Shown here one piece after another: positions 1 to 38,378 of a stretch of DNA of 64,000 nt (within the stretch, counting starts at the first letter, position 1; every line of letters starts with the position of its first letter). The stretch is taken from the NCBI RefSeq assembly GCF_044647545.1, contig NZ_CP172818.1. One strand, 5' to 3'. The DNA comes from Escherichia coli. GTDB lineage: Bacteria > Pseudomonadota > Gammaproteobacteria > Enterobacterales > Enterobacteriaceae. Both the position numbers and the translations under genes were made by a program. The notes beneath the pieces were generated by a model, which had not been told where the DNA came from, searched no databases, and was given only the letters and a program-made list of their open reading frames with translations.

Positions 1-1
1 C

Positions 2-208
2 TCATCGGCCTGTACTGACGCAGTGAATGCGCCGGAATGGCGGTATTACTGGCAGGTCAACATGCCAGCCGCCACCAACACCACCTGGATGACATGTGGC
101 GATCCCTGTGATTCCGCACTGCGTATCTGGGGCGACACCGTTGTCGAGTGCGTGCTTAACAAACTCTGCCCTTCGCATACCTACGTAATTTTTAAATATC
201 CGGAGTAA
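2..208 (+). CDS. C-terminal fragment of a phage tail/baseplate protein, truncated by window edge
   Basis: Open frame running from window start to TAA at 206-208, directly upstream of stfP; position matches the gene preceding stfP in e14; identity not recognised. Confidence 0.35.
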
Positions 209-211
209 TCC

Positions 212-841
212 ATGCATCGTATAGACACGAAAACCGCGCAGAAGGATAAGTTCGGCGCGGGTAAGAACGGTTTTACCCGTGGTAACCCCCAGACCGGCAC
301 ACCTGCCACCGATCTGGATGATGACTACTTTGACATGTTGCAGGAAGAACTTTGTAGCGTGGTGGAGGCCTCCGGTGCCAGCCTGGAGAAAGGGCGGCAT
401 GACCAGATGCTTACCGCACTTCGTGCGCTGCTGTTAAGCCGCAAGAATCCGTTTGGCGATATCAAATCGGATGGCACTGTGCAAACGGCTCTCGAAAACC
501 TTAGTTTAGGAGAAGGAGCAAAACTCAATGCAGCAACGGCTACATTAGGACGCACCGGTTTCATAGCTATACCGGTTATGATTGGTGGTATTGAGCAATC
601 AGTAATCATTCAGTGGGGGTGGAATGCCGCAAAAGCATCTGCCTCTGGGGGGGATGGAAATACAGTTGTATTCCCGGTTGCGTTTAATAATGCCTGTGTT
701 GCCGTTGTTGCAAATTATGACAATGTCAGCGCACCTATCAATGCAGTGGCAACGGGGGGATATACAACCACTTCGTTTTTATTACGGTGCGCAGCTCAAA
801 CGGGTAGTTATTACTATAACTGGATTGCTATTGGGTATTAA
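212..841 (+). CDS. stfP: Side tail fiber protein StfP (constant N-part fused to P-orientation variable part)
   Basis: 209-aa ORF; junction motif NLSLGEGAKL at the pix site; same length as K-12 StfP. Confidence 0.8.
   Translation: MHRIDTKTAQKDKFGAGKNGFTRGNPQTGTPATDLDDDYFDMLQEELCSVVEASGASLEKGRHDQMLTALRALLLSRKNPFGDIKSDGTVQTALENLSLGEGAKLNAATATLGRTGFIAIPVMIGGIEQSVIIQWGWNAAKASASGGDGNTVVFPVAFNNACVAVVANYDNVSAPINAVATGGYTTTSFLLRCAAQTGSYYYNWIAIGY
489..514 (+). other. pixL: Hin/Gin/Cin-type 26-bp inversion crossover site inside stfP
   Basis: ctctcgAAAACCttAGTTTaggagaa; AAACC-NN-GGTTT-like core; inverted relative to site at 2310-2335. Confidence 0.6.
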
Positions 842-842
842 G

Positions 843-1319
843 ATGAAAATATACTGTTGCTTAAATACCGTTGGTTTTTTTATGGATGGCTGTGGCGTCA
901 TTCCGCCAGATTCTAAAGAAATAACGGCAGAACACTGGCAGTCATTATTAAAATCTCAAGCTGAAGGAGGCGTGATCGATTTTTCTGTTTTTCCTCCTTC
1001 TATTAAAGAGGTTATCCGTACTCATGATGATGAAGTCGCAGATGCGAACTTTCAAAAGCAGATGCTTATCTCTGATGCAACTGATTTTATCAATAGCAGA
1101 CAGTGGCAGGGTAAGGCTGCATTGGGAAGACTTAAAGAAGATGAGCTGAAACAATCTGATTTGTGGGCTGGATTATCTGGACGCACTGGCGCTGGTCGAT
1201 ACCGCCAGTGCGCCGGATCTGAATGGCCTACGCCTCCGGCAGTTCAGGCCAGTAAATATCCGGTACAGTGCTGGTATCCGTTGCCATCACCGCGTCAATG
1301 TAATCCAGCACGGCGTTAA
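843..1319 (+). CDS. tfaP: Tail fiber assembly protein TfaP (start uncertain)
   Basis: ATG at 843 immediately after stfP stop; 3' end overlaps convergent tfaE; C-terminal region atypical so exact ends uncertain. Confidence 0.5.
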   Translation: MKIYCCLNTVGFFMDGCGVIPPDSKEITAEHWQSLLKSQAEGGVIDFSVFPPSIKEVIRTHDDEVADANFQKQMLISDATDFINSRQWQGKAALGRLKEDELKQSDLWAGLSGRTGAGRYRQCAGSEWPTPPAVQASKYPVQCWYPLPSPRQCNPARR

Positions 1320-1830
1320 GTCGGGTGTTTTCTGTCTGCGTCAGCTTCCTCCCGGCCTGCAATTTCAGTTGAATCAGACTAATTGAAGCCATTGCAGTAT
1401 CAATCAGTGACTGGCGCTGTGCTTCTGCCGCTTCTATTGCGGCACCGTATTGTGCCTCGGTATCGGTTACCCATTTCTCACCATCCCATTTATCGTATGG
1501 TGTTAACGGAGCGATAGTGGTCATATTTTCAGGGTAATCCCCTGGCGCTGTGATTTCTTTTGGTTCTCCCGTTTCGGTGCTATAAACAATTTCACCGCGA
1601 TGGTCTGGCACATATTTCCACGAGTTCAAATCCGTTGAGCGGCAAATTGCATAACCCGTTTTATGTGTACCAGGTGCATCTAAACAAGAACATGCCGGGA
1701 TACCGACACCGACAGCAAGATATTCGGTTGATGTTGAGATATATTCCTGTGTCCCATTATCATAGTTATAAACGGTAATATCCCCTGCCTTTACCGCGAT
1801 CAGCGCATCATTTAATACAGCTCCACCCAT
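1228..1830 (-). CDS. tfaE: Tail fiber assembly protein TfaE
   Basis: 200-aa ORF with typical Tfa C-terminal region (...VPDIYWPELPEA). Confidence 0.8.
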   Translation of the reverse strand: MGGAVLNDALIAVKAGDITVYNYDNGTQEYISTSTEYLAVGVGIPACSCLDAPGTHKTGYAICRSTDLNSWKYVPDHRGEIVYSTETGEPKEITAPGDYPENMTTIAPLTPYDKWDGEKWVTDTEAQYGAAIEAAEAQRQSLIDTAMASISLIQLKLQAGRKLTQTENTRLNAVLDYIDAVMATDTSTVPDIYWPELPEA

Positions 1831-2330
1831 TATGCAGCCCTCACGATATAATTAAATGAAATATTTCGTGGACGTGATTCGTTACCGAATTTATCTGAAC
1901 CATCAGTATTTCTCGCTGAATATGTTTGGAGGATTGTCCCTGATGATGGATTCGCATTATATTCATTTGTTCCTGCTGGATAGTATGACATTGCACTATT
2001 GTCATCTTTGAAAACAGCAGACATCAATCCATCACCACCACTTCCGTAAGCAGTTGTAAGAAATGACGGTGATCGAAAGAAAGACTATTTTGTGCCGAAA
2101 GTAAGGGAACGACCAGAATCTACCCCGCGCCCATCATCCCAGCCACGAATAAACTCACCACGTAAATCAGGCAATTTATTTGTCGGGTAAGCCTTCGCCA
2201 GTTTTGGATATTCAACGGCAGAAAAAGCCGCACCGTTGCATTTCAGCCAGCCAGTAGGCGGTGTGGCTGAAGGCCACGGAACAGGCACACCAACGGGTAA
2301 TGCCGAACCTTCTCCCAAACCAAGGTTTAT
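1830..2330 (-). pseudogene. stfE: Alternative tail-fiber variable segment StfE, interrupted by in-frame TAG at 2085-2087
   Basis: ORFs 2085..2390 and 1830..2027 are in the same frame, separated by a TAG; junction motif NLGLGEGSAL parallels StfP; an uninterrupted frame would give 166 aa. Confidence 0.6.
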
Positions 2331-2335
2331 GAAAA
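2310..2335 (+). other. pixR: Hin/Gin/Cin-type inversion crossover site just upstream of pin
   Basis: ttctcccAAACCaaGGTTTatgaaaa closely resembles hix/gix/cix consensus; reverse complement matches the 489-514 site core. Confidence 0.7.
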
Positions 2336-2392
2336 TGCGGAATAAGCGGCAAATGGCATCATTCCTGCTTTTGTCAGGGAGAGCTACCATGC

Positions 2393-2941
2393 TTATTGGC
2401 TATGTATGTGTGTCAACAAATGACCGAAACACAAATCTACAGCGTAATGCGCTGAACTGTGCAGGATGCGACTCATTTTTGAAGACAAGATAAGCGGTAC
2501 AAAGTCTGAAAGGCCGGGACTGAAAAAACTGCTCAGGACATTATCGGCAGGTGACACGCTGGTGGTCTGGAAACTGGACCGGCTGGGGCGTAGTATGCGG
2601 CATCTGGTCATTCTGGTTGAGGAGTTGCGCGAACGTGGCGTTAATTTTCGCAGCCTAACAGATGCTATTGATATCAGCACATTCGATGGGGCGTTTTTCT
2701 TTATGTGATGGGGGCCTTGGCTGAAATTGAGCGTGAACTGATTGTTGAACGAACAAAAGCTGGACTGGAAACTGCTCGTGCACAGGGACGAATTGGTGGA
2801 CGTCGTCCCAAACTTACACCAGAACAATGGGCACAAGCTGGACGATTAATTGCAGCAGGAACTCCTCGCCAGAAGGTGGCGATTATCTATGATGTTGGTG
2901 TGTCAACTTTGTATAAGAGGTTTCCTGCAGGGGATAAATAA
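2393..2941 (+). pseudogene. pin: Serine invertase Pin, disrupted by two frameshifts
   Basis: Three consecutive ORF pieces in three frames (MLIGYVCVSTNDR... stop at 2495-2497; ...RLIFEDKISGTKSERPGLKK... stop near 2706-2708; ...MGALAEIERELIVERTKAGL...GDK); together they cover a Gin/Hin-like invertase. Confidence 0.8.
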
Positions 2942-3047
2942 AGTTAAAGACACTTTGTGTACAAAAGAAAGTAAAACAACAGCAACTTGTTGCAATTTTA
3001 TCAATAAAAGTAGTATTGTCGTGAAAAATTGATTAAAGATTAATATT

Positions 3048-3881
3048 ATGCATGTTTTTGATAATAATGGAATTGAACTGAAAGCTGAGTGTTCGATAGG
3101 TGAAGAGGATGGTGTTTATGGTCTAATCCTTGAGTCGTGGGGGCCGGGTGACAGAAACAAAGATTACAATATCGCTCTTGATTATATCATTGAACGGTTG
3201 GTTGATTCTGGTGTATCCCAAGTCGTAGTATATCTGGCGTCATCATCAGTCAGAAAACATATGCATTCTTTGGATGAAAGAAAAATCCATCCTGGTGAAT
3301 ATTTTACTTTGATTGGTAATAGCCCCCGCGATATACGCTTGAAGATGTGTGGTTATCAGGCTTATTTTAGTCGTACGGGGAGAAAGGAAATTCCTTCCGG
3401 CAATAGAACGAAACGAATATTGATAAATGTTCCAGGTATTTATAGTGACAGTTTTTGGGCGTCTATAATACGTGGAGAACTATCAGAGCTTTCACAGCCT
3501 ACAGATGATGAATCGCTTCTGAATATGAGGGTTAGTAAATTAATTAAGAAAACGTTGAGTCAACCCGAGGGCTCCAGGAAACCAGTTGAGGTAGAAAGAC
3601 TACAAAAAGTTTATGTCCGAGACCCGATGGTAAAAGCTTGGATTTTACAGCAAAGTAAAGGTATATGTGAAAACTGTGGTAAAAATGCTCCGTTTTATTT
3701 AAATGATGGAAACCCATATTTGGAAGTACATCATGTAATTCCCCTGTCTTCAGGTGGTGCTGATACAACAGATAACTGTGTTGCCCTTTGTCCGAATTGC
3801 CATAGAGAATTGCACTATAGTAAAAATGCAAAAGAACTAATCGAGATGCTTTACGTTAATATAAACCGATTACAGAAATAA
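3048..3881 (+). CDS. mcrA: 5-methylcytosine-specific restriction endonuclease McrA (HNH)
   Basis: 277-aa ORF with C-terminal HNH motif (CENCG...HHVIPLSSGG...CPNCH). Confidence 0.9.
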   Translation: MHVFDNNGIELKAECSIGEEDGVYGLILESWGPGDRNKDYNIALDYIIERLVDSGVSQVVVYLASSSVRKHMHSLDERKIHPGEYFTLIGNSPRDIRLKMCGYQAYFSRTGRKEIPSGNRTKRILINVPGIYSDSFWASIIRGELSELSQPTDDESLLNMRVSKLIKKTLSQPEGSRKPVEVERLQKVYVRDPMVKAWILQQSKGICENCGKNAPFYLNDGNPYLEVHHVIPLSSGGADTTDNCVALCPNCHRELHYSKNAKELIEMLYVNINRLQK

Positions 3882-4125
3882 AATTATTTATTAAAGTCAC
3901 ATTTAAGACGTAATACCCTACAGGGTAAAAATTTTCTCTGATCTTAACTTCTGCAAATGTTAACTGCTATTTTTATGCTAAAAATGGTTATCAAAACTCA
4001 AAAACACATGTTTATAATCAATGAGTTATAGAAATGCTAAGGGCTAATGAGTTATATGCAAATTAGTAAAATTATGTTGCTATGTCAGATAGTTACGATT
4101 TAGTCATCTAACTAATGTACGCCAT

Positions 4126-4278
4126 ATGGGCTGGACTGAAGCCGCAGACTTGATTGTTAAAGGTATGGAAGGCGCAATCAACGCCAAGACTGTAACCTAT
4201 GACTTCGAACGTCTGATGGAAGGCGCTAAACTGCTGAAATGTTCAGAGTTTGGTGACGCGATCATCAAGAATATGTAA
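4126..4278 (+). pseudogene. icdC: icdC: displaced 3' fragment of isocitrate dehydrogenase at prophage attR
   Basis: Encodes [50 protein letters not shown], the Icd C-terminus, without an upstream body. Confidence 0.85.
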
Positions 4279-4301
4279 TTACTACATGTGTTAAATATTG
4301 T

Positions 4302-4334
4302 AACGGGCGTATAACACGCCCGTTGTTTTATTTA
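4302..4334 (+). terminator. Rho-independent terminator (icd 3' terminator)
   Basis: Hairpin aacgggcgt-ataac-acgcccgtt followed by gttttatttat. Confidence 0.6.
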
Positions 4335-4380
4335 TGTGGGTATTATTAATAGCACATTGAGCATATTTATATGAAGCCCA

Positions 4381-4704
4381 TTACTTGAGCCCATATGGGC
4401 ATATTTTTATAATGCAACTATTATGCAAACATTTATTTGTTATTTTGCTTTCTCCTGGAGGACACTCTTGACTGCTTTTGAGTAAACTCCATAAATCCTT
4501 GTTGAATGGTGCGATGTTATAAATAGTAATAGGATATTCTTTATCCTTAAGGATAATACCAGATTTAACCGGTGTAAATATCCTGCCAGGAGGAAGAAAT
4601 ATAGTGGATTGATACCAGATGATCATTTTCATATCACCCCATATGGCTGAAAAAGATATGCCGCATGTAGGTTGAATTACCGTGTCAATTACTATCCACT
4701 TCAT
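4381..4704 (-). CDS. iraM: Anti-adaptor protein IraM
   Basis: 107-aa [33 protein letters not shown]... recognised as IraM. Confidence 0.9.
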
Positions 4705-5148
4705 TTGTTATGTCTTATCCCACGGTGCTTAATATAGTTCATTTGGATGTTCATTTCTTGATTTTGCATATGTGTATATTACTCCCAAAAAAATAAATTA
4801 ATTAAAAATTAATGTCATTATCTATATAAAACAAAATTTAAAGCAAGGAATCTCAATAGAGATTAAACAAAATGAGATTTAGTGAAAACATTAAATTATT
4901 CACTTCGTTTTAGATTTGTTTAGCTAAAATGTTATACATTCAAATGACTGAATATTCTGTAATTAAAACATAGCCTTTATGCTACTTTGAGCCAATTTGC
5001 TAAACATTATGGTTGGCCTTTTAATATAACGATAATGATGAATATAAGCATGACCTGAGAATAAGGTTTCAATTTTTTAGTTATATAAAAATGGTTAAAC
5101 CCGTTCCTGACTAAAATACATATAATCGGATGATGACTAAACCAAAAC

Positions 5149-5200
5149 ACATGTGCGTTAAGTATTGAAACGGGCGTATGGCACGCCCGTTGGTTTTATA
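5149..5200 (+). repeat. Second copy of the icd-terminator-like hairpin module (direct repeat of 4283-4334)
   Basis: acatgtgcgttaagtattgaaacgggcgtatggcacgcccgttggttttat versus acatgtgttaaatattgtaacgggcgtataacacgcccgttgttttattt. Confidence 0.55.
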
Positions 5201-5406
5201 AATATGTTAACCGTTATAAAATAACGTATAGAAAGTCAAGTGATCACATTTCAAATATTAAGTTGATAGTATTGGCCTGGTGATTATTTATGGGTGGCAA
5301 TAAAAAGACAGTATTTATCATCCATAGGGATAGTCTCTGCACTTTTATTTCCATTATGCTAATGCCTTACTGAATTATGAAGCATTTCTTAAGCTTCCAA
5401 CTTTAG

Positions 5407-5811
5407 CTAGATTAATGGTTTATTGTTTTCTACATCTTCAATATATAAAAGCGTATTATCAATGGCGTAGTAACTGCGTTTGTTATGATTAACATCAGTA
5501 ACCCACCGGAAAACGCCCGCGTCTGCCAGTGTTGAACAGTATTCCCGAAATGTAGATTTTCCGCAAATATGAAGCAATGCGGCCTCTTTTATTTTAGCAG
5601 GGTTCTTGGTCGTACTAACTTTTAACAGGTTCCTGGTTCCTCTTAATAACAAAACCGTGTCATCGTGAGTAATAATTCTGATGTTATCCGTAGCTAGATA
5701 ATAAATGTAATGTGCAATACGGTGATGTTTTAATTCTGAATAAAACCAGGAGAAGTTTTGCTCTTTTCTCACTTGCTCAAACATCTTTTGAAAAACAACG
5801 ACCTGATCCAT
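5407..5811 (-). CDS. ycgX: Uncharacterized protein YcgX
   Basis: 134-aa ORF at the K-12 ycgX position. Confidence 0.8.
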   Translation of the reverse strand: MDQVVVFQKMFEQVRKEQNFSWFYSELKHHRIAHYIYYLATDNIRIITHDDTVLLLRGTRNLLKVSTTKNPAKIKEAALLHICGKSTFREYCSTLADAGVFRWVTDVNHNKRSYYAIDNTLLYIEDVENNKPLI

Positions 5812-6031
5812 CAGGATAATAACCTCTTGTTAGTTGTGAGACTGCGTAGTGTGCACGATCGGTTTTACCACTTCAATCTGGTCTGTCCTTTGGCTGTGAT
5901 ATGTACAAAGTGTGAAAGGGGGATTACCTGAATTCTCCCGGTGAGCATTTTGTAATGGACCAGCTCCGGTACAAACGCTGTTGTGGGTTCAGATTATAAC
6001 ATTCTGTCTAAGGGGCGGGATAAAGGTGAAA

Positions 6032-6763
6032 TTAGGGGGCATGGAAGATGACTTTATAACCTTGCTCACCCCAGTGTTGTAAAAGTTCGTTTTGCCTTCT
6101 CGTTGGTGCCATGCCTGTCCAGACAATTAATGTTTGCGTCGGGAACAGTTCCGGGCGCGGCGATTCAATGGGATCAGCAAGAACAGAAATGTGCCATCCT
6201 GACAATGATAAACGCCATGCTTCCAGCCACAATCGTGCTCTCTCTTCAACATTCCACGCCATCAGAATGGCTTCTTTACCGGGCTTACGGCGCATTTCGA
6301 AAAGCGAGGCTGCTGCGTATTCAATTAATGCGCCGTCAAACATACTGCTCATAATGCGGGAGGTGTTGTGATCAAGCACGAGACGCTGGCGAACAGGAAG
6401 GTAAACATGATTAATCAATTGATCTACTGGGTACTCTCGGCCCAGTGAAATAATTCTCGCGCGTAGTTTGGCAGGATTAGCCATACGAAGAATTGACATC
6501 ATCTCTTCTTGCAGGCGGCTCCAGTCATCTTCCGTATCCTGGCTGGTGGTTTCCAGTAATGCTTTAACTTTGCCTACAGGGACGCCATTACTTATCCAAC
6601 GCTTGATCTCTTCGATGCGTTGTATGTCTTCTTCATCAAAGAGTCGGTGTCCGCCTTCACTGCGCTGTGGTTTTAACAAACCGTAGCGGCGTTGCCAGGC
6701 CCGGAGAGTGACAGGATTAATCCCGCAACGTTCAGCAACATCACCAATGCTGTAATAAGCCAC
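6032..6763 (-). CDS. bluR: MerR-family repressor BluR
   Basis: 243-aa ORF with N-terminal MerR HTH ([30 protein letters not shown]...). Confidence 0.9.
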
Positions 6764-6967
6764 AATTCCTCCTTGCGGTCACAAATCTCCGTCGCCTGTA
6801 CACGACCCAATAATACTTTGTACAATATACGCTAAAATTGTACAAAGTATAAATAAGATTTCAGCTAAATTGAATGAAACATTATTTTTAATGTGGATTA
6901 AATTTAAACATAACGTATTCATTTTCACGATGATTTTCAGAAATCATACGAAATAATGTGCTGGAAA

Positions 6968-8179
6968 TTATTTTTTCTCCGGCCACGCAACTGAAGGGAT
7001 ACCATTCAATTTAGCTTTCGCAAACAGATCTCCCTGAAACATCTCAATTCCTGCAGATTCAAGCCACATCCACTCTTCTGGTGTTGTCACACCCATAGCA
7101 GAGACTTGAATTTCAAGTGATGTACAGCATTTTATGATCGCTTGAATAATTGCCTGCCGTGGCCCGCTTTTATGAACATTGGTAATCAATTCCTGACTGA
7201 TTTTAATTCTGTCAGGCTGGAAGCGTGACAGGAGTAACAAACCGGCAAAACCTGCGCCAAAATGATCAATTGCTACACTGATACCGGCAGCCTTAAGCGA
7301 TTTAATCGCTTCTGCAAACTCATCAAACCGAGATATGACTTCACTTTCAGTAAATTCAACGATGATTTGTTCAGGCACCAGAGCATTGGCCTTTATTTCA
7401 TCAAGTAAAAAAGAGACTGCGTCAGGTTCGTTAACCAGGGTCATAGGTAATAGATTGATTGAAATCATTTTATCACCGAGCTCAAGTGCGTGTGCCATCG
7501 CGAATGCAAGCGCCTTACTTTTGAGATCCGCTGTATAGATTTCCCCGTCTTTACGCTGCCCAACCGCTATAGCTGATGGGCTATCTTCATTTTTTTGCAC
7601 AATGGCTTCAAAAGCGATTATCCGCCGCGATAAGGGATCGACAATAGGATGAAAGGCAAAGTGGTCGTTTATAGTTGGTGAAAGGGTACAGGAATCAAGT
7701 TCTTTATCAGATCCGTCAGCGATAAAAAGCCAGGAGTCTTCGGCAGGGATCTCGAAATAGGTTGCTTGTTCGGTTGCAAGGACAAAAGTACGAAAAAATT
7801 GTAGCGCTCTGTCATCATAAGTTAGCTGAAATTTTGATGTGCCTTTGTCGAATACGGCCTGTAAAACGTCATCTCGCTCGTGCAGGCGCAAATCAAATAA
7901 TTCCATTCCCGCTTTGTCAAAACGGCGAGCAGGCGCGTAATCGCACATCAGCTCAACAATATTATAGTGCCGTGGATCCTGGCATATAGCCCGATATATC
8001 ATTTTAACCTGTTCTTCCGGACCTTCCAGAAGCTGGAAAAAATGAGAACCATTAAACAGTAAGATCCCTGTTACGTCAGACAGCATGTTCCTGCGATTTG
8101 CTATCGAAACCATTTCTTCGATTTTTTTGACAGGTTCGTCGTCACGTATATGGCTACGATAAATAAGGGTGGTAAGCAT
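6968..8179 (-). CDS. bluF: Blue-light sensor BluF (BLUF + degenerate EAL)
   Basis: 403 aa from ATG at 8179 (MLTTLIYRSHIRDDEP...); ORF-track start at 8257 is an upstream extension. Confidence 0.9.
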   Translation of the reverse strand: MLTTLIYRSHIRDDEPVKKIEEMVSIANRRNMLSDVTGILLFNGSHFFQLLEGPEEQVKMIYRAICQDPRHYNIVELMCDYAPARRFDKAGMELFDLRLHERDDVLQAVFDKGTSKFQLTYDDRALQFFRTFVLATEQATYFEIPAEDSWLFIADGSDKELDSCTLSPTINDHFAFHPIVDPLSRRIIAFEAIVQKNEDSPSAIAVGQRKDGEIYTADLKSKALAFAMAHALELGDKMISINLLPMTLVNEPDAVSFLLDEIKANALVPEQIIVEFTESEVISRFDEFAEAIKSLKAAGISVAIDHFGAGFAGLLLLSRFQPDRIKISQELITNVHKSGPRQAIIQAIIKCCTSLEIQVSAMGVTTPEEWMWLESAGIEMFQGDLFAKAKLNGIPSVAWPEKK

Positions 8180-8416
8180 TAACTGTCCAGGGTAATGGGA
8201 GAGGCGAGAGTAAGACGGTAACAGACATATCTTCCGGTGTCTTTCTTTTAATACCAAAACATAACTGTTTCTTTACATTGATAAAAAATGGAAAAAGTTG
8301 AAGATGAGTTGGCGAAAATTTTTGTATAGGTTGTTATTTAAATGATGCAATATTTTTTATCATAACCTGTTGTTTTGTATGTATTAGCACTAAATGCAAA
8401 AAATTAATTTATCATT

Positions 8417-8438
8417 TTGTACACATATTTCGTACAAG
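8417..8438. promoter_or_regulatory. Candidate MerR-type (BluR) operator in ycgZ promoter
   Basis: Imperfect inverted repeat ttGTACAcatatttcgTACAAg about 60 bp upstream of ycgZ ATG. Confidence 0.3.
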
Positions 8439-8492
8439 TTTGCTATTGTTACCTCACTTAACATTGATTAACATTTTTAACAGAGGCGTAGC

Positions 8493-8729
8493 ATGCATCA
8501 AAATTCAGTGACTTTAGATTCTGCGGGAGCAATCACTCGTTACTTTGCAAAAGCTAACTTGCCTACTCAGCAGGAAACTCTCGGAGAAATTGTGACTGAG
8601 ATTTTGAAAGATGGACGTAATCTGAGTCGAAAGTCGCTTTGTGCCAAACTTCTAGGTCGACTGGAACAAGCGACAGGGGAAGAGGAACAGAAACATTATA
8701 ATGCACTAATTGGGTTGCTTTTTGAATAA
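8493..8729 (+). CDS. ycgZ: YcgZ
   Basis: 78-aa ORF, first gene of ycgZ-ymgA-ariR-ymgC cluster. Confidence 0.85.
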   Translation: MHQNSVTLDSAGAITRYFAKANLPTQQETLGEIVTEILKDGRNLSRKSLCAKLLGRLEQATGEEEQKHYNALIGLLFE

Positions 8730-8771
8730 TGCAACAGCCTGATTATTTAACAGGTTAGCTATGAAGTCGTT

Positions 8772-9044
8772 ATGAAGACATCTGATAATGAAAGTACAAA
8801 ATATGAAATTACTGGCCAGGCGGTGCTCCAGATACTGCGCATGAAGATAAATTTTTCGTTGCAGACTCTTATTAAGCAATTACTCGTAATGAAATCTGTT
8901 GAGGAAAATGCTTTCCGACGAGATTTAATTGACAGCATAATTCGTGATTTTAGTAACAGTGATACAGGAGGGCCAAACAGAAGAACAGCGATAACTGACA
9001 ATAAAAGTATTTTCAATGGTAAGAAAATAAACAGAATACATTAA
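8772..9044 (+). CDS. ymgA: YmgA
   Basis: 90-aa ORF. Confidence 0.85.
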   Translation: MKTSDNESTKYEITGQAVLQILRMKINFSLQTLIKQLLVMKSVEENAFRRDLIDSIIRDFSNSDTGGPNRRTAITDNKSIFNGKKINRIH

Positions 9045-9072
9045 AATTTCATAAGTAAGATGAGAGGTTACT

Positions 9073-9339
9073 ATGCTTGAAGATACTACTATTCATAATG
9101 CAATAGCTGATAAAGCGTTATCAAGTTACTTTCGCAGTTCGGGTAATTTGTTAGAAGAAGAGTCAGCTGTGTTAGGGCAGGCTGTCACCAATTTAATGCT
9201 TTCAGGCGATAATGTTAATAATAAAAATATTATCTTAAGTCTGATACACTCCCTGGAAACAACAAATGATATCCTCAAAGCTGATGTGATCAGAAAAACA
9301 CTGGAAATCGTGTTGCGATACACAGCGGATGATATGTGA
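9073..9339 (+). CDS. ariR: AriR (YmgB), acid-resistance/biofilm regulator
   Basis: 88-aa [23 protein letters not shown]... Confidence 0.85.
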
Positions 9340-9451
9340 CTTTTAATTATTAAGTATAAATTTATAGAAAACTCATTCATCTTATTTTTGTCTGTCGCTT
9401 TAGACTATACACAGCATAATTTTATTGGGTTAATATTTCTACGAGGCTGAC

Positions 9452-20776: not shown

Positions 20777-21436
20777 ATGTATCAACATCACAACTGGCAA
20801 GGTGCGCTGCTGGATTATCCGGTGAGTAAAGTAGTCTGTGTTGGCAGTAACTATGCCAACCATATTAAAGAGATGGGCAGCGCAGTGCCCGAAGAGCCAG
20901 TGCTGTTTATTAAACCAGAAACGGCACTGTGCGATCTGCGGCAGCCATTGGCGATCCCATCCGATTTCGGTTCAGTTCATCATGAAGTCGAACTGGCGGT
21001 ATTGATTGGCGCGACGCTGCGTCAGGCTACGGAAGAGCATGTCCGCAAAGCCATTGCCGGTTATGGCGTGGCGCTCGATCTGACATTGCGTGATGTTCAG
21101 GGAAAAATGAAGAAAGCCGGGCAGCCGTGGGAAAAGGCTAAAGCGTTTGACAACTCTTGTCCGCTTTCCGGGTTTATTCCCACGGCGGAATTTACCGGCG
21201 ACCCGCAAAATACAACGCTGGGCCTGAGCGTAAACGGCGAACAACGCCAGCAAGGTACGACTGCGGACATGATCCATAAAATCGTTCCGCTGATCGCTTA
21301 TATGAGCAAGTTCTTTACCCTCAAGGCCGGTGACGTTGTGCTGACAGGCACGCCTGATGGCGTCGGCCCGTTGCAAAGCGGTGATGAGCTGACAGTCACT
21401 TTTGATGGGCATTCTTTGACAACTCGCGTTTTGTAA
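20777..21436 (+). CDS. ycgM: FAH-family hydrolase/oxaloacetate decarboxylase YcgM
   Basis: 219-aa ORF with fumarylacetoacetate hydrolase-family features. Confidence 0.85.
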
Positions 21437-21512
21437 TACTTTTTGCCGCCTGAAAGCGACGGCAAAACTTGCATCGCTGTGCCAGACTGGTTATAAGGTG
21501 CGTTTTAACGTA

Positions 21513-21974
21513 ATGGCGGAACACCTGATGAGCGATGTACCTTTCTGGCAAAGTAAAACCCTGGACGAAATGAGCGATGCGGAATGGGAGTCGTTGTGTG
21601 ATGGTTGCGGTCAGTGTTGCCTGCATAAACTGATGGATGAAGACACCGACGAAATCTACTTCACTAACGTCGCCTGTCGCCAGCTCAATATTAAAACCTG
21701 TCAATGTCGGAACTACGAACGTCGTTTCGAGTTTGAACCTGACTGCATTAAATTAACCCGTGAAAATCTGCCAACATTCGAATGGCTGCCAATGACCTGC
21801 GCTTATCGCTTGCTGGCGGAAGGTAAAGATTTACCTGCGTGGCATCCGCTGCTTACTGGTTCGAAAGCGGCAATGCATGGCGAACGTATCTCTGTGCGTC
21901 ATATCGCAGTGAAAGAATCAGAAGTGATTGACTGGCAGGATCATATCTTAAATAAACCTGACTGGGCGCAGTGA
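21513..21974 (+). CDS. ycgN: UPF0260 cysteine-rich protein YcgN (start codon uncertain among 21498/21513/21528)
   Basis: ORF with CDGCGQCC...C...CQC motif. Confidence 0.75.
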
Positions 21975-22180
21975 TAAATTTAATAGATGTTGATGGGGGC
22001 TTTCTTAATATACGTCTGGATGCTCGCCATTTCGTAGCCCTGTTTTTGAAAGCGCTCTGTCATAATGAGAGTTACCCGATACCTTATTATCAACAGGTAA
22101 CTCTCAATCTTTAAAAAACGTCTGTATTTTTAAATGTGATAAACTTTATACCTTGAGTACATGGAGAGAATAATCGCTGA

Positions 22181-23092
22181 TCAGACTTCAGGTACCTCAA
22201 AGAGTGTCTTCTTACCGTGTCTTTTCTGATACTCATTACAGGTGTTAATCATTTTTTTGGCCGCTTCTTTTAGCAAAGAAAGCATTAAATCATCATAATC
22301 AACGTAGAATCTGGTTGTTTCAGTTTCCGTTTTTATCTCCCCGATGGCGGCTATTTCGGTGGTTAATTTCAATTTGGCGGCATCGATATCTTTATTCGCT
22401 TGTTTAACCGTGTTAGACAGGGTGGTAAAGAAACTCTGCACAGATTTTAACTTGTTCTTCAATTCTGGAATCAGTTTCCCTTCAACTACGCCCGCAGCAA
22501 TAGAATAGGAAATGATTAAACCAAATGGACCGGCGACGACACCGGCTGCGGCACCGGCATACGCTTCCTTCCTGATTTTATCTACCTGTGACTGGAAATA
22601 GCTGCTTTTTTCTGAAAAATCATTGGTTAACTGGCTATCTAACGCCAGCAGTTTCCCGGAAGCGTTGTTGAAACTTTGTGAGCTTACCAGCAGGGATTTT
22701 TGCGCTTCATTCAGCTTCGTGATACCGTCATCCAGTACCTTAATGAGAATGTCTTTCTGGGCGGATGCTTTCTTCTCATTGTACTCATCAAATAGCAAAA
22801 TATACGCTGCGAGCAATTGCGTCGCAACACCACACCATTCATACACTGTTTGGGTTGCTTCAAAATACTTATCCTGGCTATCCATAAGTAAGGTTTTAAT
22901 ATCGCCAACTAAAACGGAGGCTGCCTGTGAATACTCCTGTTTAAAGCGACTTAACTCTTTTATGGTTTCATCAAAGGTCTGCCAGGGGATGACCTGATCG
23001 AGATATTTATTATAAAGATCTAATGCTCCATCTGCGGTTTCGATTGCGTTTTTAACTACCTCTACCGTTTTATCTGCAACGATTTCAGTCAT
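22181..23092 (-). CDS. hlyE: Pore-forming hemolysin E (ClyA)
   Basis: 303 aa from ATG 23092 (MTEIVADKTVEVVKNAIETADGALDLYNKYLDQVIPWQTF...). Confidence 0.9.
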   Translation of the reverse strand: MTEIVADKTVEVVKNAIETADGALDLYNKYLDQVIPWQTFDETIKELSRFKQEYSQAASVLVGDIKTLLMDSQDKYFEATQTVYEWCGVATQLLAAYILLFDEYNEKKASAQKDILIKVLDDGITKLNEAQKSLLVSSQSFNNASGKLLALDSQLTNDFSEKSSYFQSQVDKIRKEAYAGAAAGVVAGPFGLIISYSIAAGVVEGKLIPELKNKLKSVQSFFTTLSNTVKQANKDIDAAKLKLTTEIAAIGEIKTETETTRFYVDYDDLMLSLLKEAAKKMINTCNEYQKRHGKKTLFEVPEV

Positions 23093-23424
23093 AATCATTC
23101 GCCTCTTTAAATATATAAATTGTAATGAAACTCCTGTTTTACAACTATTAAAGAATTTTACTTCATCTAATTCATAGTTAGCCGGGCGGGATGCGTCAAT
23201 GTCTTTATTTCTATTAATATGATAAATATCAAACAATGTTTAATGTCATTATGGCTGATGCTTCTATTCTATTTTTTAGCCGGGTGATATTTTTCATTTC
23301 TGCTGGATGAGCGTCGTCGCCAGAAGGCGCGTGAGCACAGGATAAGAGAACGAAAAATCAGCAGTCTATGCAGCGACAAATATTGATAGCCTGAATCAGT
23401 ATTGATCTGCTGGTAAGAACAGAC

Positions 23425-23444
23425 TACTGTATATAAAAACAGTA
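23425..23444. promoter_or_regulatory. LexA (SOS) box of umuDC
   Basis: taCTGTatataaaaaCAGta palindrome 20 bp upstream of umuD ATG. Confidence 0.85.
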
Positions 23445-23463
23445 TAACTTCAGGCAGATTATT

Positions 23464-23883
23464 ATGTTGTTTATCAAGCCTGCGGATCTCCGCGAAATTG
23501 TGACTTTTCCGCTATTTAGCGATCTTGTTCAGTGTGGCTTTCCTTCACCGGCCGCAGATTACATTGAACAGCGCATCGATCTGAATCAACTGTTGATCCA
23601 GCATCCCAGCGCGACTTACTTCGTCAAAGCAAGTGGTGATTCTATGATTGATGGTGGAATTAGTGACGGTGATTTACTGATTGTCGATAGCGCTATTACC
23701 GCCAGCCATGGTGATATTGTCATCGCTGCTGTTGACGGCGAGTTTACGGTGAAAAAATTGCAACTACGCCCGACGGTACAGCTTATTCCCATGAACAGCG
23801 CGTACTCGCCCATTACCATCAGTAGTGAAGATACGCTGGATGTCTTTGGTGTGGTGATCCACGTCGTTAAGGCGATGCGCTGA
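23464..23883 (+). CDS. umuD: DNA polymerase V subunit UmuD
   Basis: 139-aa ORF. Confidence 0.95.
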
Positions 23884-25151
23884 TGTTTGCCCTCTGTGAT
23901 GTAAACGCGTTTTATGCCAGCTGTGAGACGGTGTTTCGCCCTGATTTATGGGGTAAACCAGTGGTTGTGCTATCGAATAATGACGGTTGCGTTATCGCCC
24001 GAAACGCTGAGGCAAAGGCGCTGGGTGTTAAAATGGGCGATCCCTGGTTCAAACAAAAAGATCTGTTTCGTCGCTGTGGCGTGGTTTGCTTTAGCAGCAA
24101 TTATGAGCTTTACGCAGACATGAGCAATCGGGTGATGTCGACGCTGGAAGAACTATCGCCCCGCGTCGAGATTTACAGTATTGATGAGGCATTCTGCGAT
24201 CTGACCGGTGTGCGTAATTGTCGCGATCTGACTGATTTTGGCAGAGAAATTCGCGCAACGGTGCTACAACGAACCCATCTTACTGTTGGTGTGGGGATCG
24301 CCCAGACCAAAACGCTGGCTAAGCTTGCCAATCATGCGGCAAAAAAATGGCAGCGGCAGACGGGTGGGGTGGTGGATTTATCAAATCTGGAACGCCAGCG
24401 TAAATTAATGTCTGCTCTCCCCGTGGATGAAGTCTGGGGGATTGGACGGCGGATCAGCAAAAAACTGGATGCGATGGGGATCAAAACCGTTCTCGATTTG
24501 GCGGATACAGATATCCGGTTTATCCGTAAACATTTTAATGTCGTGCTCGAAAGAACGGTGCGTGAACTGCGCGGCGAACCCTGTTTGCAACTGGAAGAGT
24601 TTGCACCGACGAAGCAGGAAATTATCTGTTCCCGTTCGTTTGGTGAACGCATCACGGATTATACGTCGATGCGGCAGGCCATTTGTAGTTACGCTGCCCG
24701 GGCGGCGGAAAAACTTCGCAGCGAGCATCAATATTGTCGGTTTATCTCCACGTTTATTAAGACGTCACCATTTGCGCTCAATGAACCTTATTACGGCAAT
24801 AGCGCGTCGGTAAAACTGCTGACGCCCACTCAGGACAGCAGGGATATCATTAACGCCGCTACGCGATCTCTGGATGCCATCTGGCAAGCGGGCCATCGTT
24901 ATCAAAAAGCGGGCGTGATGCTGGGGGATTTCTTCAGTCAGGGAGTCGCGCAGCTCAATTTATTCGATGACAACGCACCGCGCCCCGGGAGTGAGCAATT
25001 GATGGCGGTAATGGATACGCTAAATGCTAAAGAGGGCAGAGGAACACTCTATTTTGTCGGGCAGGGGATCCAGCAACAATGGCAGATGAAGCGTGCCATG
25101 CTTTCACCACGTTATACAACGCGAAGTTCTGATTTACTGCGGGTCAAATAA
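23883..25151 (+). CDS. umuC: DNA polymerase V catalytic subunit UmuC
   Basis: 422-aa ORF; start overlaps umuD stop. Confidence 0.95.
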   Translation: MFALCDVNAFYASCETVFRPDLWGKPVVVLSNNDGCVIARNAEAKALGVKMGDPWFKQKDLFRRCGVVCFSSNYELYADMSNRVMSTLEELSPRVEIYSIDEAFCDLTGVRNCRDLTDFGREIRATVLQRTHLTVGVGIAQTKTLAKLANHAAKKWQRQTGGVVDLSNLERQRKLMSALPVDEVWGIGRRISKKLDAMGIKTVLDLADTDIRFIRKHFNVVLERTVRELRGEPCLQLEEFAPTKQEIICSRSFGERITDYTSMRQAICSYAARAAEKLRSEHQYCRFISTFIKTSPFALNEPYYGNSASVKLLTPTQDSRDIINAATRSLDAIWQAGHRYQKAGVMLGDFFSQGVAQLNLFDDNAPRPGSEQLMAVMDTLNAKEGRGTLYFVGQGIQQQWQMKRAMLSPRYTTRSSDLLRVK

Positions 25152-25196
25152 ACATAGCGGCAGGAAAAAAGCGCTCCCGCAGGAGCGCTGAATGGA

Positions 25197-25727
25197 TTAG
25201 CGACCGAACAGGTCACGTTTTTTCGCTTTAAACGGCTGGGAAATCACCACCAGCACCGCGACAATCAGGTAAGCGATAAAAATACCGAGCAACCACTGCG
25301 GCATTTCCAGACCTAAAAAATCCCACTGACGCTCGGCACAATCGCCAGAGGCGACAAACACTTGCGGCACCCATTTATCCAGCGGCAGCCATTCCGGGAA
25401 ACGAACCATAAAATCACAGGTGGCAAACGGCGAAGGATAGAGCTGAAGCATGGTGTGCTCGTAAGTTAACTGCACACCGCGGAACGCACTATACAACCAG
25501 ATAACCATCGCTACATAACGCAGTGGCGTTTTTGGGGCGATCGCGCCAATCAGCGCAGCACCCAGAACGCCGAATAATGCGCAGCGTTCATAAATACAGA
25601 GCACGCAAGGTTTCAGTAACATCACATGCTGGAACCACAGCGCCGTCAGTTCCAGTGCCAGAGCAGTAAACGCCATCAACAGCCACGCGCCCCGGCCTTG
25701 TGAACATTGGTTCAAAAATCGCAACAT
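25197..25727 (-). CDS. dsbB: Disulfide oxidoreductase DsbB
   Basis: 176 aa from ATG 25727 ([17 protein letters not shown]...). Confidence 0.9.
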
Positions 25728-25872
25728 AATCATTTCCCTGCAATATGCATAGAGTGCGCAGTTTAAACCAATTCATTCGCTGCGCCACCAGGAGGCAGCA
25801 AAAATAGGACGCAATTGGACAATTATCGGGCGAAAAGGCAAACCGGGCATTTATATGCCCGGTAAGTTGTTA

Positions 25873-27414
25873 TCAAAGCGTTGCTATCCAGCCCATTTGC
25901 ATAAACCATTCGGTTACAGGGGCAAGCGTAAACTCGACGCAGAGCAGTCCGACGAGTGTCAGTACGAGGGTGTAAGGCAGGGCCATCCACACCATGCGGC
26001 CATAAGAGAGGCGAATCAATGGCGCGAGTGCAGAGGTCAGCAGGAACAGGAACGCAGCCTGACCGTTCGGTGTAGCGACAGAGGGCAGATTGGTACCGGT
26101 ATTAATGGCGACCGCCAGCAGCTCGTATTGCTTCAACGTGATAGCGCCACTTTCCATTGCCGCTTTCGCTTCGTTGATATAAATCGTCCCCACGAAGACA
26201 TTATCCGAAATGGATGACAGCAGGCCGTTAAAAATATAGAACAACGACAGCTGGGCGTGTTCCGATGCCTGTAGGACAAAATGAATGATTGGTGAGAACA
26301 GTTGCTGATCAATAATTACCGCGACGACCGAGAAAAAGACAGTCAACAGTGCGGTGAATGGCAGAGATTCGGTGAAGGCTTTACCGATAGCATGTTCATC
26401 AGTGACACCAGTCAATGATGTCGCCAGAATAATGACCGACAAACCAATCAGGCCAACCTCCGCCAGATGCAACGCCAGCGCGGTGACCAGCCAGACGCCG
26501 ATAATCGCCTGGACAATCAGACGAATTTTATCCTGACGGGTACGCTGGTGGCGACTTTGATCGTCAAACTGTTGCAGCACTTCGCGGACTTTCTCCGGCA
26601 GCGTTTCGCCGTAGCCAAAACAACGCAGCTTCTCCACCAGCAGGCAGGTCAACAGGCCACAAATCAGAACCGGAACGGTCACTGGCGACATGCGCAGGAA
26701 GAAATCGCCAAAATGCCAGCCAGCTGCTTTAGCGATGATCAAGTTCTGTGGTTCGCCCACCATGGTCATCACGCCGCCTAATGCGGTGCCAACACCGGCA
26801 TGCATCATCAGGCTGCGCAAAAAGCCACGGAACTGTTCCAGAACCACTTTGTAATGCTTGTCGATATGACTATCGTCTTGCAGGTCGGTATCTTCAGTAC
26901 GGGAAGAGGCAACACGATGATAAATACCATAAAAACCGACTGCGACGCTGATCACCACCGCCACGACGGTTAAGGCATCGAGGAACGCGGAGAGGAACGC
27001 CGCCGCCATGCAAAAAGAGAGCGACAGCAGCATTTTGGAGCGAATGCTTAGCAGCAAACGGGTAAATATGAACAGCAACAGCTGTTTCATAAAATAGATA
27101 CCCGCCACCATAAACATCAGTAACAGCAAGACTTCAAGATTCGCCGCCACCTCTTCACGAACATGTTCCGCGCTGGTCATGCCGATGAATACCGCTTCGA
27201 TAGCCAACAGACCACCGGGGAGCAGCGGATAGCATTTGAGGGCCATCGCCAGAGTGAAAATAAATTCCGCCACCAGCAGCCAACCGGCAACAAAGGGGCT
27301 GATGATGAAAATTAACGGATTAAGAATTAAGAAAATAATGAGGGCGAGTTTGTACCAGTCGGGGGACTGGCCCAAAAAATTGCGCCATAGCGCACGGCCC
27401 CAGGAGATCTCCAT
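25873..27414 (-). CDS. nhaB: Na+/H+ antiporter NhaB
   Basis: 513 aa from ATG 27414 ([23 protein letters not shown]...). Confidence 0.9.
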
Positions 27415-27636
27415 GATGGTTTCCCTTACCTTAGAAATAATCAATGATGTTTTTATCTTAGAACGCAAAGCTTAACGGTCAGGAGGGGATCGAGGCAAGT
27501 GTTGATGGTCTGGAGAAAAGAGATGTAGAAAATGAAGCCTTGATCCCTTTTTTCTTCTTTTTGTGTGCTATCAGCGTAGATAGCCCTCTGGTATGATGAG
27601 TCCAACTTTGTTTTGCTGTGTTATGGAAATCTCACT

Positions 27637-28356
27637 ATGGTCATTAAGGCGCAAAGCCCGGCGGGTTTCGCGGAAGAGTACATTATTGAAAGTATCTGGA
27701 ATAACCGCTTCCCTCCCGGGACTATTTTGCCCGCAGAACGTGAACTTTCAGAATTAATTGGCGTAACGCGTACTACGTTACGTGAAGTGTTACAGCGTCT
27801 GGCACGAGATGGCTGGTTGACCATTCAACATGGCAAGCCGACGAAGGTGAATAATTTCTGGGAAACTTCCGGTTTAAATATCCTTGAAACACTGGCGCGA
27901 CTGGATCACGAAAGTGTGCCGCAGCTTATTGATAATTTGCTGTCGGTGCGTACCAATATTTCCACTATTTTTATTCGCACCGCGTTTCGTCAGCATCCCG
28001 ATAAAGCGCAGGAAGTGCTGGCTACCGCTAATGAAGTGGCCGATCACGCCGATGCCTTTGCCGAGCTGGATTACAACATATTCCGCGGTCTGGCGTTTGC
28101 TTCCGGCAACCCGATTTACGGTCTGATCCTTAACGGGATGAAAGGGCTGTATACGCGCATTGGTCGTCACTATTTCGCCAATCCGGAAGCGCGCAGTCTG
28201 GCGCTGGGTTTCTACCACAAACTGTCGGCGTTGTGCAGTGAAGGCGCACACGATCAGGTATACGAAACAGTGCGTCGCTATGGGCATGAGAGCGGCGAGA
28301 TTTGGCACCGGATGCAGAAAAATCTGCCGGGTGATTTAGCCATTCAGGGGCGATAA
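27637..28356 (+). CDS. fadR: Fatty-acid metabolism regulator FadR (GntR family)
   Basis: 239 aa from ATG 27637 ([28 protein letters not shown]...). Confidence 0.95.
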
Positions 28357-28373
28357 TCCCTTCCGTTTAAAAA

Positions 28374-28399
28374 GCAAACCCCTCAAACGAGGGGTTTTT
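28374..28399. terminator. Bidirectional terminator between fadR and ycgB
   Basis: aaacccctc-aaac-gaggggttttt, with an A-run upstream on the + strand. Confidence 0.65.
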
Positions 28400-28407
28400 G
28401 GTTGTTT

Positions 28408-29940: not shown

Positions 29941-30156
29941 ACGCGCACCTCATTGTTGTCGGCGCTCTCTGTGTGGAGCACCTCATTTCAAGCATAGAAC
30001 ACCTGTTAAAAACCGCGTCGCCGGAGAATTTTTTTCTTTGCGATTTCTTATTATTAGAGTGCCACTAATCCGCTTCTGAACGGAATTTTATGCTGGATAA
30101 AAAGGGCGTTCAGCAGGAGATACTAAAGACGCCATATTGCCGCAGAGTCAGGGAGA

Positions 30157-30172
30157 TGTGAGCCAGCTCACC
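30157..30172. promoter_or_regulatory. CRP binding site in dadAX promoter
   Basis: TGTGAgccagcTCACc matches TGTGA-N6-TCACA. Confidence 0.7.
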
Positions 30173-30224
30173 ATAAAAAAGCCATATGTTGAATAATATT
30201 TTCAACTGAGTTATCAAGATGTAA

Positions 30225-31568
<1,344 letters not shown>

Positions 31569-31577
31569 GGAAACGAG

Positions 31578-32648: not shown

Positions 32649-33033
32649 CTTGTTGTAAGCCGGATCGGAGGCAGCGTCTTCTGGTTGCGAAAAAATCATC
32701 CATCCGGCTGGTCAGCAACTGTAGTTGGTGATGTGACAGAGCCATTTCCCATGATAGTGTCCATTACAATGATGGACACTATTTCCCCGGAACCTGAACT
32801 CACCGCACAGGCGTTCTACATAAAACGCTTACGTTTCATTGTTGACTCGAACTCGACTTCAGATAAATCACGCTTCACCCTTGATGGAGCCTGTACATAG
32901 ATTTGTGTAATTGCCTGATTTTGATATGTTCAATTCACCTTCAAATGAAGGTGAATTTATGGCCGACAAACAATTACAGGCTCTGGCTGCGGTCAGTAAA
33001 GCATCGCATCCGGCGATAGATGCTGCATTAAAT

Positions 33034-34818
<1,785 letters not shown>

Positions 34819-34864
34819 TTAGCGGCAGAGACAGCGTTTTACTTAGCCCTGAAGCGTGATTTTT

Positions 34865-36490
<1,626 letters not shown>

Positions 36491-36491
36491 A

Positions 36492-37226: not shown

Positions 37227-37426
37227 GCGGAAAAACTCCTGACTGACAAACTGTCTTAGGTTTATCGGTCACAGTTAACAAAACTTAATACAAATGCGTG
37301 AATATTTTTTACATGTCGTTCTTAAATCAGCCGACATACGCCCAGCATCGATCCCGCCCTTGCCTATACTTAGAGCGTTGACGTAAGCATTTCTTGCGTC
37401 CGATTCATCGAAACGAGGGCCTGAAC

Positions 37427-37681
37427 ATGGGAATTATTGCCTGGATTATTTTTGGCCTGATAGCCGGCATAATCGCCAAGCTAATCATGCCGGGACGTGA
37501 TGGTGGTGGATTTTTCCTGACCTGTATTCTCGGGATAGTCGGTGCGGTGGTCGGCGGCTGGCTGGCGACCATGTTTGGCATTGGCGGCACCATCAGCGGT
37601 TTTAATTTGCACAGCTTCCTGGTGGCGGTGGTGGGCGCTATCCTGGTGCTGGGCGTATTCCGCCTCCTGCGAAGAGAATAA
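37427..37681 (+). CDS. ymgE: Transglycosylase-associated small membrane protein YmgE
   Basis: 84 aa from ATG 37427 (MGIIAWIIFGLIAGIIAKLIMPG...). Confidence 0.85.
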   Translation: MGIIAWIIFGLIAGIIAKLIMPGRDGGGFFLTCILGIVGAVVGGWLATMFGIGGTISGFNLHSFLVAVVGAILVLGVFRLLRRE

Positions 37682-38286: not shown

Positions 38287-38378
38287 AAAACCGTCGTGAG
38301 AAAAAACCATAGCTATGGTGTTATCCGCCGACAACGCCATCCGGAGAAGCCGAATGACGTTGTCGGAGTAAGCGCTGG

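Follow-up and report, generated by a model that had tools for sequence, protein, structure and literature searches.

In Escherichia coli K-12 the DNA invertase gene pinE is carried by the defective prophage e14 in the order ycfK(stfP)-tfaP-tfaE-stfE-pinE-mcrA-icd', with a pair of inverted crossover sites approximately 1.8 kb apart bounding the invertible P segment. When pinE is deleted in K-12 and expression is at native levels, the P segment stays locked; the segment is also inverted in trans by PinQ of prophage Qin, and this inversion blocks adsorption of phage T2 (PMC12529663). Invertases of the Gin/Hin/Cin/Pin family are encoded by a single uninterrupted frame, and in the related Tn3 resolvase the substitutions R8A, R8K and Q14R each abolished recombination in vivo, with cleavage rates relative to the parent of <0.0001, 0.0002 and 0.016, respectively (PMC2794168). 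A pinE gene in the same position, with the same neighbours and the same crossover sites (the left site carrying two G>A changes), is present in a 64,000 nt stretch of the E. coli contig NZ_CP172818.1 (assembly GCF_044647545.1), referred to throughout as the window. Compared with K-12 pinE this gene has four indel bases, Cys7, Arg13 and a different haplotype over its 5' 390 bp, whilst its 3' 213 nt are identical and the protein obtained after repair of the indels differs at 10 of 184 residues. A preliminary description presented it as a decayed pseudogene; the observation is correct in outline, although the interpretation of a pseudogene decaying in place is probably wrong and the record is probably a reference-templated chimera. 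We place a probability of approximately 70% on the broken pinE being a product of reference-guided assembly, in which the first 390 bp of K-12 pinE would have been overwritten by reads from a truncated Cys7 relic and consensus noise would have generated the frameshifts.

The pinE frame starts with an ATG at 2389 and ends with a stop at 2939-2941; the gene and its stop at 2941 had been recognized previously, with the start placed four bases too late at 2393. In the open reading frame (ORF) listing and three-frame translation the gene falls into pieces at 2389-2493 (34 amino acids, aa), 2466-2708 (80 aa) and 2705-2941 (78 aa) in three frames, and with K-12 PinE as a tblastn query the protein was likewise recovered across three frames of the window. 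At the level of ORFs the account of a frame broken twice and spread over three frames is accurate, however placement of the lesions by alignment with intact pinE of K-12, BS-04 and 23CRST035 gives three indel sites comprising four bases. The gene, its lesions and the sequence that follows them are listed below by window position.

2389..2941, + strand: pinE-type DNA invertase frame, disrupted, 553 nt versus 555 nt in intact alleles
2337..2728, + strand: tract whose haplotype is that of truncated Cys7 pin remnants, comprising the promoter region and codons 1-114 and holding all pinE lesions
2407..2409, + strand: codon 7 reads TGT, giving Cys where the active site has Arg (Arg8 of Tn3/gamma-delta resolvase); CGT or CGC in intact alleles
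2425..2427, + strand: codon 13, CGA (Arg) in place of an invariant Gln (Gln14 of Tn3 resolvase) through an AG>GA swap; CAG in intact alleles
2471..2472, + strand: first frameshift, a G lost between these two bases (between GCGA and CTC), plus G>C at 2474
2681..2702, + strand: second lesion cluster, with G>A at 2681, an extra T at 2682/2683, T5 versus T6 at 2694-2698 and T3 versus T4 at 2700-2702
2729..4116, + strand: 3' end of pinE, mcrA and intergenic sequence, 100% identical to K-12 MG1655 with zero substitutions and zero indels
4115..4278, + strand: switch from K-12 to ST648-type sequence at the attR-side icd fragment, with one base lost at ~4117 (three-way alignment)

The G lost at 2471/2472 lies outside any homopolymer, and both T-run losses at 2694-2702 coincide with positions that are C in K-12 but T in the remnant haplotype; a loss of the same kind is seen at the attR switch. 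The resulting frame path is 1>3>1>3>2, in which 'SMGRF' is a short frame-1 stretch. Repair of the indels gives a full-length 184-aa Gin/Pin-type invertase with Pfam Resolvase (PF00239, 2.5e-45, residues 3-135) and HTH_7 (PF02796, 5.5e-14, residues 138-181) domains, which aligns over its full length with Mu Gin (PDB 3uj3, 4m6f; 1.5e-87 against 3uj3) and, by its catalytic domain, with gamma-delta resolvase (4.6e-28). The domain architecture of the invertase subfamily, an N-terminal resolvase catalytic domain and a C-terminal HTH_7 domain in about 184-193 aa, is thus seen in the repaired translation only, and the uninterrupted frame of the family is absent. The pattern is that of a gene relic rather than a chance arrangement of ORFs, and domain architecture, the catalytic Ser, the crossover sites and the genomic setting all place the gene in the Gin/Hin/Cin/Pin family. 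A gene that is split but functional, or read by programmed frameshifting, was considered and rejected, since invariant residues are altered, no slippery-site logic is present and a path of 1>3>1>3>2 is incompatible with such a gene.

Residue conservation was assessed with 120 homologue cluster representatives. The active-site sequence YVCVSTNDR, noted previously for lacking an Arg two residues before the Ser, is confirmed: codon 7 is TGT, and position 7 is Arg in all 118 aligned representatives. The alignment with K-12 pinE through which each indel and substitution was placed also revealed a change that had not been singled out in the preliminary description, Q13R, at a position that is Gln in 119 of 119 homologues; this change is private to the record of the window. 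Mu Gin and the resolvases have Arg and Gln at the positions occupied by Cys7 and Arg13. The catalytic Ser9 (YVCVS; Ser10 in resolvase), which is Ser in 119/119 homologues, is retained as in Gin, and D16N falls at a variable position of the homologue alignment. As written, the sequence cannot encode an active invertase, because it combines the frameshifts with Cys7 and Q13R, the equivalents of which are inactive in Tn3 resolvase. A Fis-dependent recombinational enhancer, which we assume by analogy with hin and gin to lie at approximately codons 8-30, would span the private changes at 2426-2474.

The origin of the 5' part of the gene is indicated by its closest relatives. Among 5,426 complete E. 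coli genomes the best matches to 2337-2728 are truncated pin remnants adjacent to prfC in L3Cip3, FORC_082 and 50EVAW (96.7%), and together with those of 23CRST011 and AMSHJX01 these e14-like relics, annotated as incomplete pseudogenes, are the closest DNA relatives of the tract at 95-96.7%. The L3Cip3 remnant has the haplotype of the tract, down to the TGT codon for Cys7 and a G upstream, and in the window this haplotype is present as a whole, with no base-by-base mixing. Homology to the remnants ends at window position 2730 and the last non-K-12 base of the window is 2728, so that 60 differences from K-12 within 2337-2728 are followed by none. The prfC-adjacent remnants end at codon 115 with unrelated DNA beyond, whereas the window runs on into K-12 pinE, and the full-length natural alleles that resemble its 5' part (23CRST035 and locus L023) have 3' parts that are not K-12. 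Approximately 13 private differences are concentrated within the 390 bp of the pinE 5' part, beside 1.4 kb with none. None of the prfC-adjacent remnants has the frameshifts of the window or Q13R, and no remnant with its private lesions was found in the complete genomes, where the best match remained 96.7%.

The Cys7 codon itself is not private. TGT at codon 7 is also present in the independent sequences L014, L022, L023 and L024; at L023:6579-7133 (IMG/VR UViG_2579779002_000008) it lies in an uninterrupted 184-aa ORF, whilst the other Cys7 copies, L022 and L024 among them, are truncated at approximately codons 41, 88 and 115. Several E. coli prophage relics, mostly dead truncated copies, carry R7C as a genuine natural variant, which constitutes a real side result of the analysis. 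Its recurrence suggests a lineage of catalytically dead invertase alleles that may be eroding in different ways. Since R7C is shared with independent natural sequences, the sequenced strain very probably carries a dead Cys7 pin relic somewhere, although ECONIH1, the ST648 reference strain, has no prophage remnant beside prfC. The frameshift allele was also sought in other sources by exact protein, junction string and DNA, and no second occurrence was found. In an exact-protein look-up of approximately 15 billion proteins the 80-aa and 77-aa pinE fragments occurred on one contig only, which at 4,499,902 bp is K-12-sized, compared with 4.9-5.4 Mb for the ST648-type genomes found here, and the string spanning the first frameshift junction was not found in JGI metagenomes or IMG/VR.

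One of the alleles used as intact in the alignment deserves separate mention. In pinE of BS-04 (L001:4049-4603, NZ_CP172819.1) residues 69-88 (SVRHLVVLVEELCEQGVNFSS) match the L024 remnant up to the point at which L024 is truncated, and beyond residue 88 there follows a stretch of L3Cip3 remnant type and then K-12 sequence for the rest of the gene. BS-04 has a chromosome of 4.52 Mb and protein accession numbers next to those of the source of the window; it may be another reference-templated record.

Beyond the prophage the window is ST648-type E. coli sequence. Positions 13959-32886 are identical to ECONIH1 at 18,928 of 18,928 nt without gaps, including 117 homopolymers of at least 5 bases at which there is no difference, and 4115-12372, 32973-37754, 38378-41693 and 40694-45678 match the same strain at 99.96-100%. 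A stretch of 8.2 kb is shared at ~100% identity by more than 60 complete genomes, and ST648-type matches begin only at window position 4115. In relatives found via the PdeG protein of the window, as in ECONIH1, icd is uninterrupted and there is no e14. Into this backbone are set islands of K-12 sequence. The ycgH autotransporter pseudogene at 12361-13970 is identical to K-12 MG1655 at 1610/1610 nt, whereas the ECONIH1 allele is equally long but unrelated; the flanks are 100% ST648-type, the last ST648 allele lying 22 nt before the heterology and the first 13 nt after it. Likewise, 46960-49305 within ycgV (region 45611-49305) is K-12 without a difference, whilst ECONIH1 carries a different island. 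Conversely, three ECONIH1-specific islands are missing and the gene order of the window is that of K-12 (window 32886-32973, 37754-38378 and 45678): a 1.9-kb hypothetical gene (L017 33247-35172 in ECONIH1), a 6.7-kb TonB-receptor and iron ABC transporter cluster (L017 39953-46685) and a helicase island after dhaR. At the attR/icd' junction (4115-4119) the window reads ATG-TACGCC, K-12 ATGCTGCGCC and ECONIH1 ATGTTACGCC, and the base loss falls exactly at the switch from one to the other.

Two further records, CP092703.1 and CP092815.1 (4.67 Mb), have the same backbone and the same P2-like tract in e14 (see below) with scattered N's; both carry intact K-12 pinE and tfaP and have N runs over 2053-2105, the site of an stfE indel pair in the window. 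No trace of either accession was found in the literature. In the first searches no complete E. coli genome exceeded 94.5% for pinE and none exceeded 97.7% over the full length of a 20-kb backbone piece; a Shigella or divergent Escherichia source, to which these values of 94-97.7% might have pointed, was rejected, since hits had been ranked in favour of coverage and the backbone matches ST648-type E. coli at 100%.

Non-K-12 sequence within e14 extends to tracts other than that in pinE, two of which carry indels:

1243..2326, - strand: P2-like tract covering tfaE and the variable part of stfE, 1081/1085 identity to the H (C-terminal part) and G genes of locus L021
1156..1242, + strand: noisy patch at the tfaP 3' end, with +G at 1165, -A at 1218 and private AT>GC substitutions

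The P2-like prophage that matches 1243-2326 at 99.6% is in GCA_021343655.1, and the bounds of the tract are the ends of similarity to L021. Its only indels are a compensating pair, -1 at ~2056 and +1 at ~2103, which lie 47 nt apart and break stfE. In the tfaP patch, for which the best match in the complete genomes is 87%, 53 nt are shifted off frame and back, and the private substitutions are nearly all from A/T to G/C. Positions 1-508 resemble the ymfQ-stfP module of other e14-like relics, and 509-1155 are K-12 without a difference. Private lesions in the window are confined to these non-K-12 e14 tracts and a noisy patch at 46165-46959, with none in the backbone, and take the form of +/-1 indels, often in compensating pairs (1165/1218, 2056/2103, and 2682 with 2694-2702), adjacent-base swaps, under-called T runs and AT>GC changes.

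These data do not fit a de novo assembly and would be accounted for if reads of an ST648-like E. coli had been mapped to K-12 MG1655 and the record were their consensus. Wherever the strain has homologous DNA its own sequence would enter the consensus, whereas K-12 DNA missing from the strain (e14, the K-12 ycgH allele and ycgV) would be retained from the reference. Inside e14, paralogous prophage reads would be mapped by similarity and replace the reference: the H/G tail-fibre genes of a P2-like prophage over 1243-2326, an e14-like remnant module over 1-508 and a truncated Cys7 pin remnant over 2337-2728. Thin, divergent and soft-clipped pile-ups would then yield a noisy consensus with +/-1 indels, adjacent-base swaps and under-called T runs, the apparent frameshifts. 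Reference islands identical to K-12 inside a backbone of another lineage, absence of lineage-specific islands and switches at homology boundaries, by which such artefacts may be recognized, are all present here. The record also resembles reference-guided consensus 'assemblies' deposited as complete, in which reference-only regions appear verbatim and islands of the sample are missing, sequence switches at homology boundaries, paralogue reads lie on reference-only genes, the chromosome has the size of the reference and sister records contain N's, with the method in the present case read from the pattern of the sequence. The mosaic pattern, the bounds of the tracts, the restriction of the frameshifts to this record and the natural occurrence of R7C are observations; we infer not only the assembly method but also the absence of e14 from the real strain and the nature of the indels as miscalls rather than lesions of a remnant; the form and location of the frameshifts and Q13R favour miscalls over real relic lesions.

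Several points weigh against a reference-templated origin. The assembly method is deduced from the sequence pattern. A K-12-identical e14 tract is not diagnostic by itself, because K-12-type mcrA is common in true lysogens (the McrA protein cluster occurs on ~1000 contigs), and tail-fibre and pin genes are naturally mosaic, with recombinant alleles known to occur. Known haplotypes do not differ at the sites of the Q13R swap and of the -1 at 2471, and both changes could be real lesions of the remnant copy of the strain. That donor copy is itself hypothetical, given the lack of a prfC-adjacent remnant in ECONIH1.

If the record is instead taken at face value, pinE would be a genuine decayed pseudogene in a real e14-like defective prophage at icd, having acquired its 5' half from the inactive Cys7 lineage by recombination and its frameshifts later, and the P segment would be locked unless another Pin-type invertase acts in trans. 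We regard this as unlikely, though several observations speak for it: R7C is natural in at least four independent sequences, mostly truncated dead copies with one full-length ORF, and further decay of an allele already inactive is plausible; R8 and Q14 substitutions abolish recombination in Tn3 resolvase (PMC2794168); the e14 neighbours tfaP and stfE are also broken, as in a defective prophage, and the perfect accuracy of the backbone speaks against general read error. It has, however, to accommodate a converted tract that stops 2-3 nt from the end of remnant homology with pure K-12 beyond, the crowding of private differences into 390 bp, relatives that lack e14, frameshifts restricted to one record and sister records with intact K-12 pinE. 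It would also leave the same switching between K-12 and ST648 sequence at ycgH and ycgV, 13-22 nt from the ends of homology. A K-12-templated consensus yields such a pattern automatically, whereas a real recombinant needs paired crossovers at every heterology, and a real K-12 x ST648 recombinant, whether from a laboratory cross or a natural hybrid, was considered unlikely as all K-12 islands are kept, all ST648 islands are lost and the crossovers would lie 13-22 nt from heterology. A variant in which gene conversion in a real e14 lysogen copied a dead, truncated pin remnant over the 5' part of a functional pinE, importing R7C and the lesions, would explain why the tract is a complete haplotype rather than a base-by-base mixture and why R7C and the upstream G are common to it and the prfC-adjacent remnants. 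Conversion requires flanking homology on both sides, and here only 2-3 nt separate the end of the tract from the point at which donor homology stops; the backbone's K-12 islands would be left unexplained and none of the complete genomes holds a remnant with the private lesions, making this explanation very improbable.

We consider it equally hard to credit that pinE is intact and functional in an otherwise correct de novo assembly, with frameshifts produced by homopolymer read errors. Two of the four indel bases do lie in T runs and indel repair does restore a full-length 184-aa protein, but the -1 at 2471 is outside homopolymers, and an assembly-wide homopolymer or read error was rejected on the strength of 18.9 kb of backbone whose 117 runs of at least 5 bases contain no error. 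This explanation would not hold even without that evidence, since the catalytic Arg is missing from the repaired protein too, which has Cys7 and Arg13 at positions invariant in 118-119 homologues. The caution about sequencing error voiced in the preliminary description was sound in instinct, with plain homopolymer error being the wrong mechanism. Its further claim, that the strain probably cannot flip the tail-fibre segment, is probably moot, because the record is likely a chimera, its closest relatives lack e14 and the locus is probably not a real allele; for the same reasons the broken gene is probably not a decayed pseudogene of the strain's own e14. If the locus were real, the claim would be broadly right for K-12-like conditions, though not absolute, as a dead pinE need not lock the P segment because PinQ acts in trans. 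That a dead Cys7 remnant overwrote the 5' half of a working pinE in a real locus and, together with the two changes in the left crossover site, locked the P segment in the T2-sensitive orientation of K-12 (PMC12529663) seems to us decidedly doubtful.

Broken invertase genes are commonplace in cryptic prophages and the biological interest of this one is low. More consequential is that the apparent pseudogenes of the record (pinE, tfaP, stfE and ycgV), its prophage content (e14 and mcrA) and its gene presence and absence would be unfit for comparative or evolutionary claims, a caution that applies equally to related K-12-sized records and covers the sisters CP092703.1 and CP092815.1. Since P-segment inversion by PinE and PinQ has recently been linked to protection from phage T2, any survey of naturally 'locked' switches will have to exclude such chimeras.

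Window positions 1-4116 represent the right end of an e14-type defective prophage. The gene order ymfQ-stfP-tfaP-tfaE-stfE-pinE-mcrA followed by a duplicated icd 3' fragment is that of e14, with unique parts that are base-for-base K-12 and may be reference. The genes and crossover sites around pinE are as follows.

Start of window: end of ymfQ
212-841: ycfK/stfP
From 843: tfaP
1228-1830, - strand: tfaE
1830-2390, - strand: stfE fragments (ORFs 1830-2027 and 2085-2390)
3048-3881: mcrA
4126-4278: attR-side icd 3' fragment
489..514, no strand assigned: left crossover site (26 bp) of the invertible P segment, differing from K-12 by G>A at both 503 and 508
2309..2334, no strand assigned: right crossover site of the P segment

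The two sites were compared with the K-12 crossover repeat sequences given in PMC12529663. They form an inverted repeat (496-516 and 2308-2328) of 21 nt that is 90% complementary and 1791 nt apart, giving a segment of ~1.8 kb, and both have the AAACC-NN-GGTTT core, so that the paired sites characteristic of the invertase subfamily are present. The P segment is in the MG1655 reference orientation only. The inner half-site of the left crossover site reads TTAGTTTAGGAGAAGG compared with TTGGTTTGGGAGAAGG in K-12, one of the two G>A changes adjoining the core dinucleotide; both changes, at 503 and 508, are also present in CP092703.1, and the arms of the inverted repeat are no longer identical. The haplotype of the tfaP patch at 1156-1242 is partly like the tfa alleles found beside Cys7 pin relics (L022, L024 and BS-04). 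Elsewhere in the window, the noisy patch at 46165-46959 that precedes the K-12 stretch of ycgV contains many small indels, and ycgV looks like a pseudogene, with an ORF at 46954-48639 of 561 aa compared with 955 aa in K-12. In the ldr toxin repeat region (61774-62992) there is one repeat unit of ~535 bp fewer than in K-12, and 209 nt (62235-62444) are unaligned.

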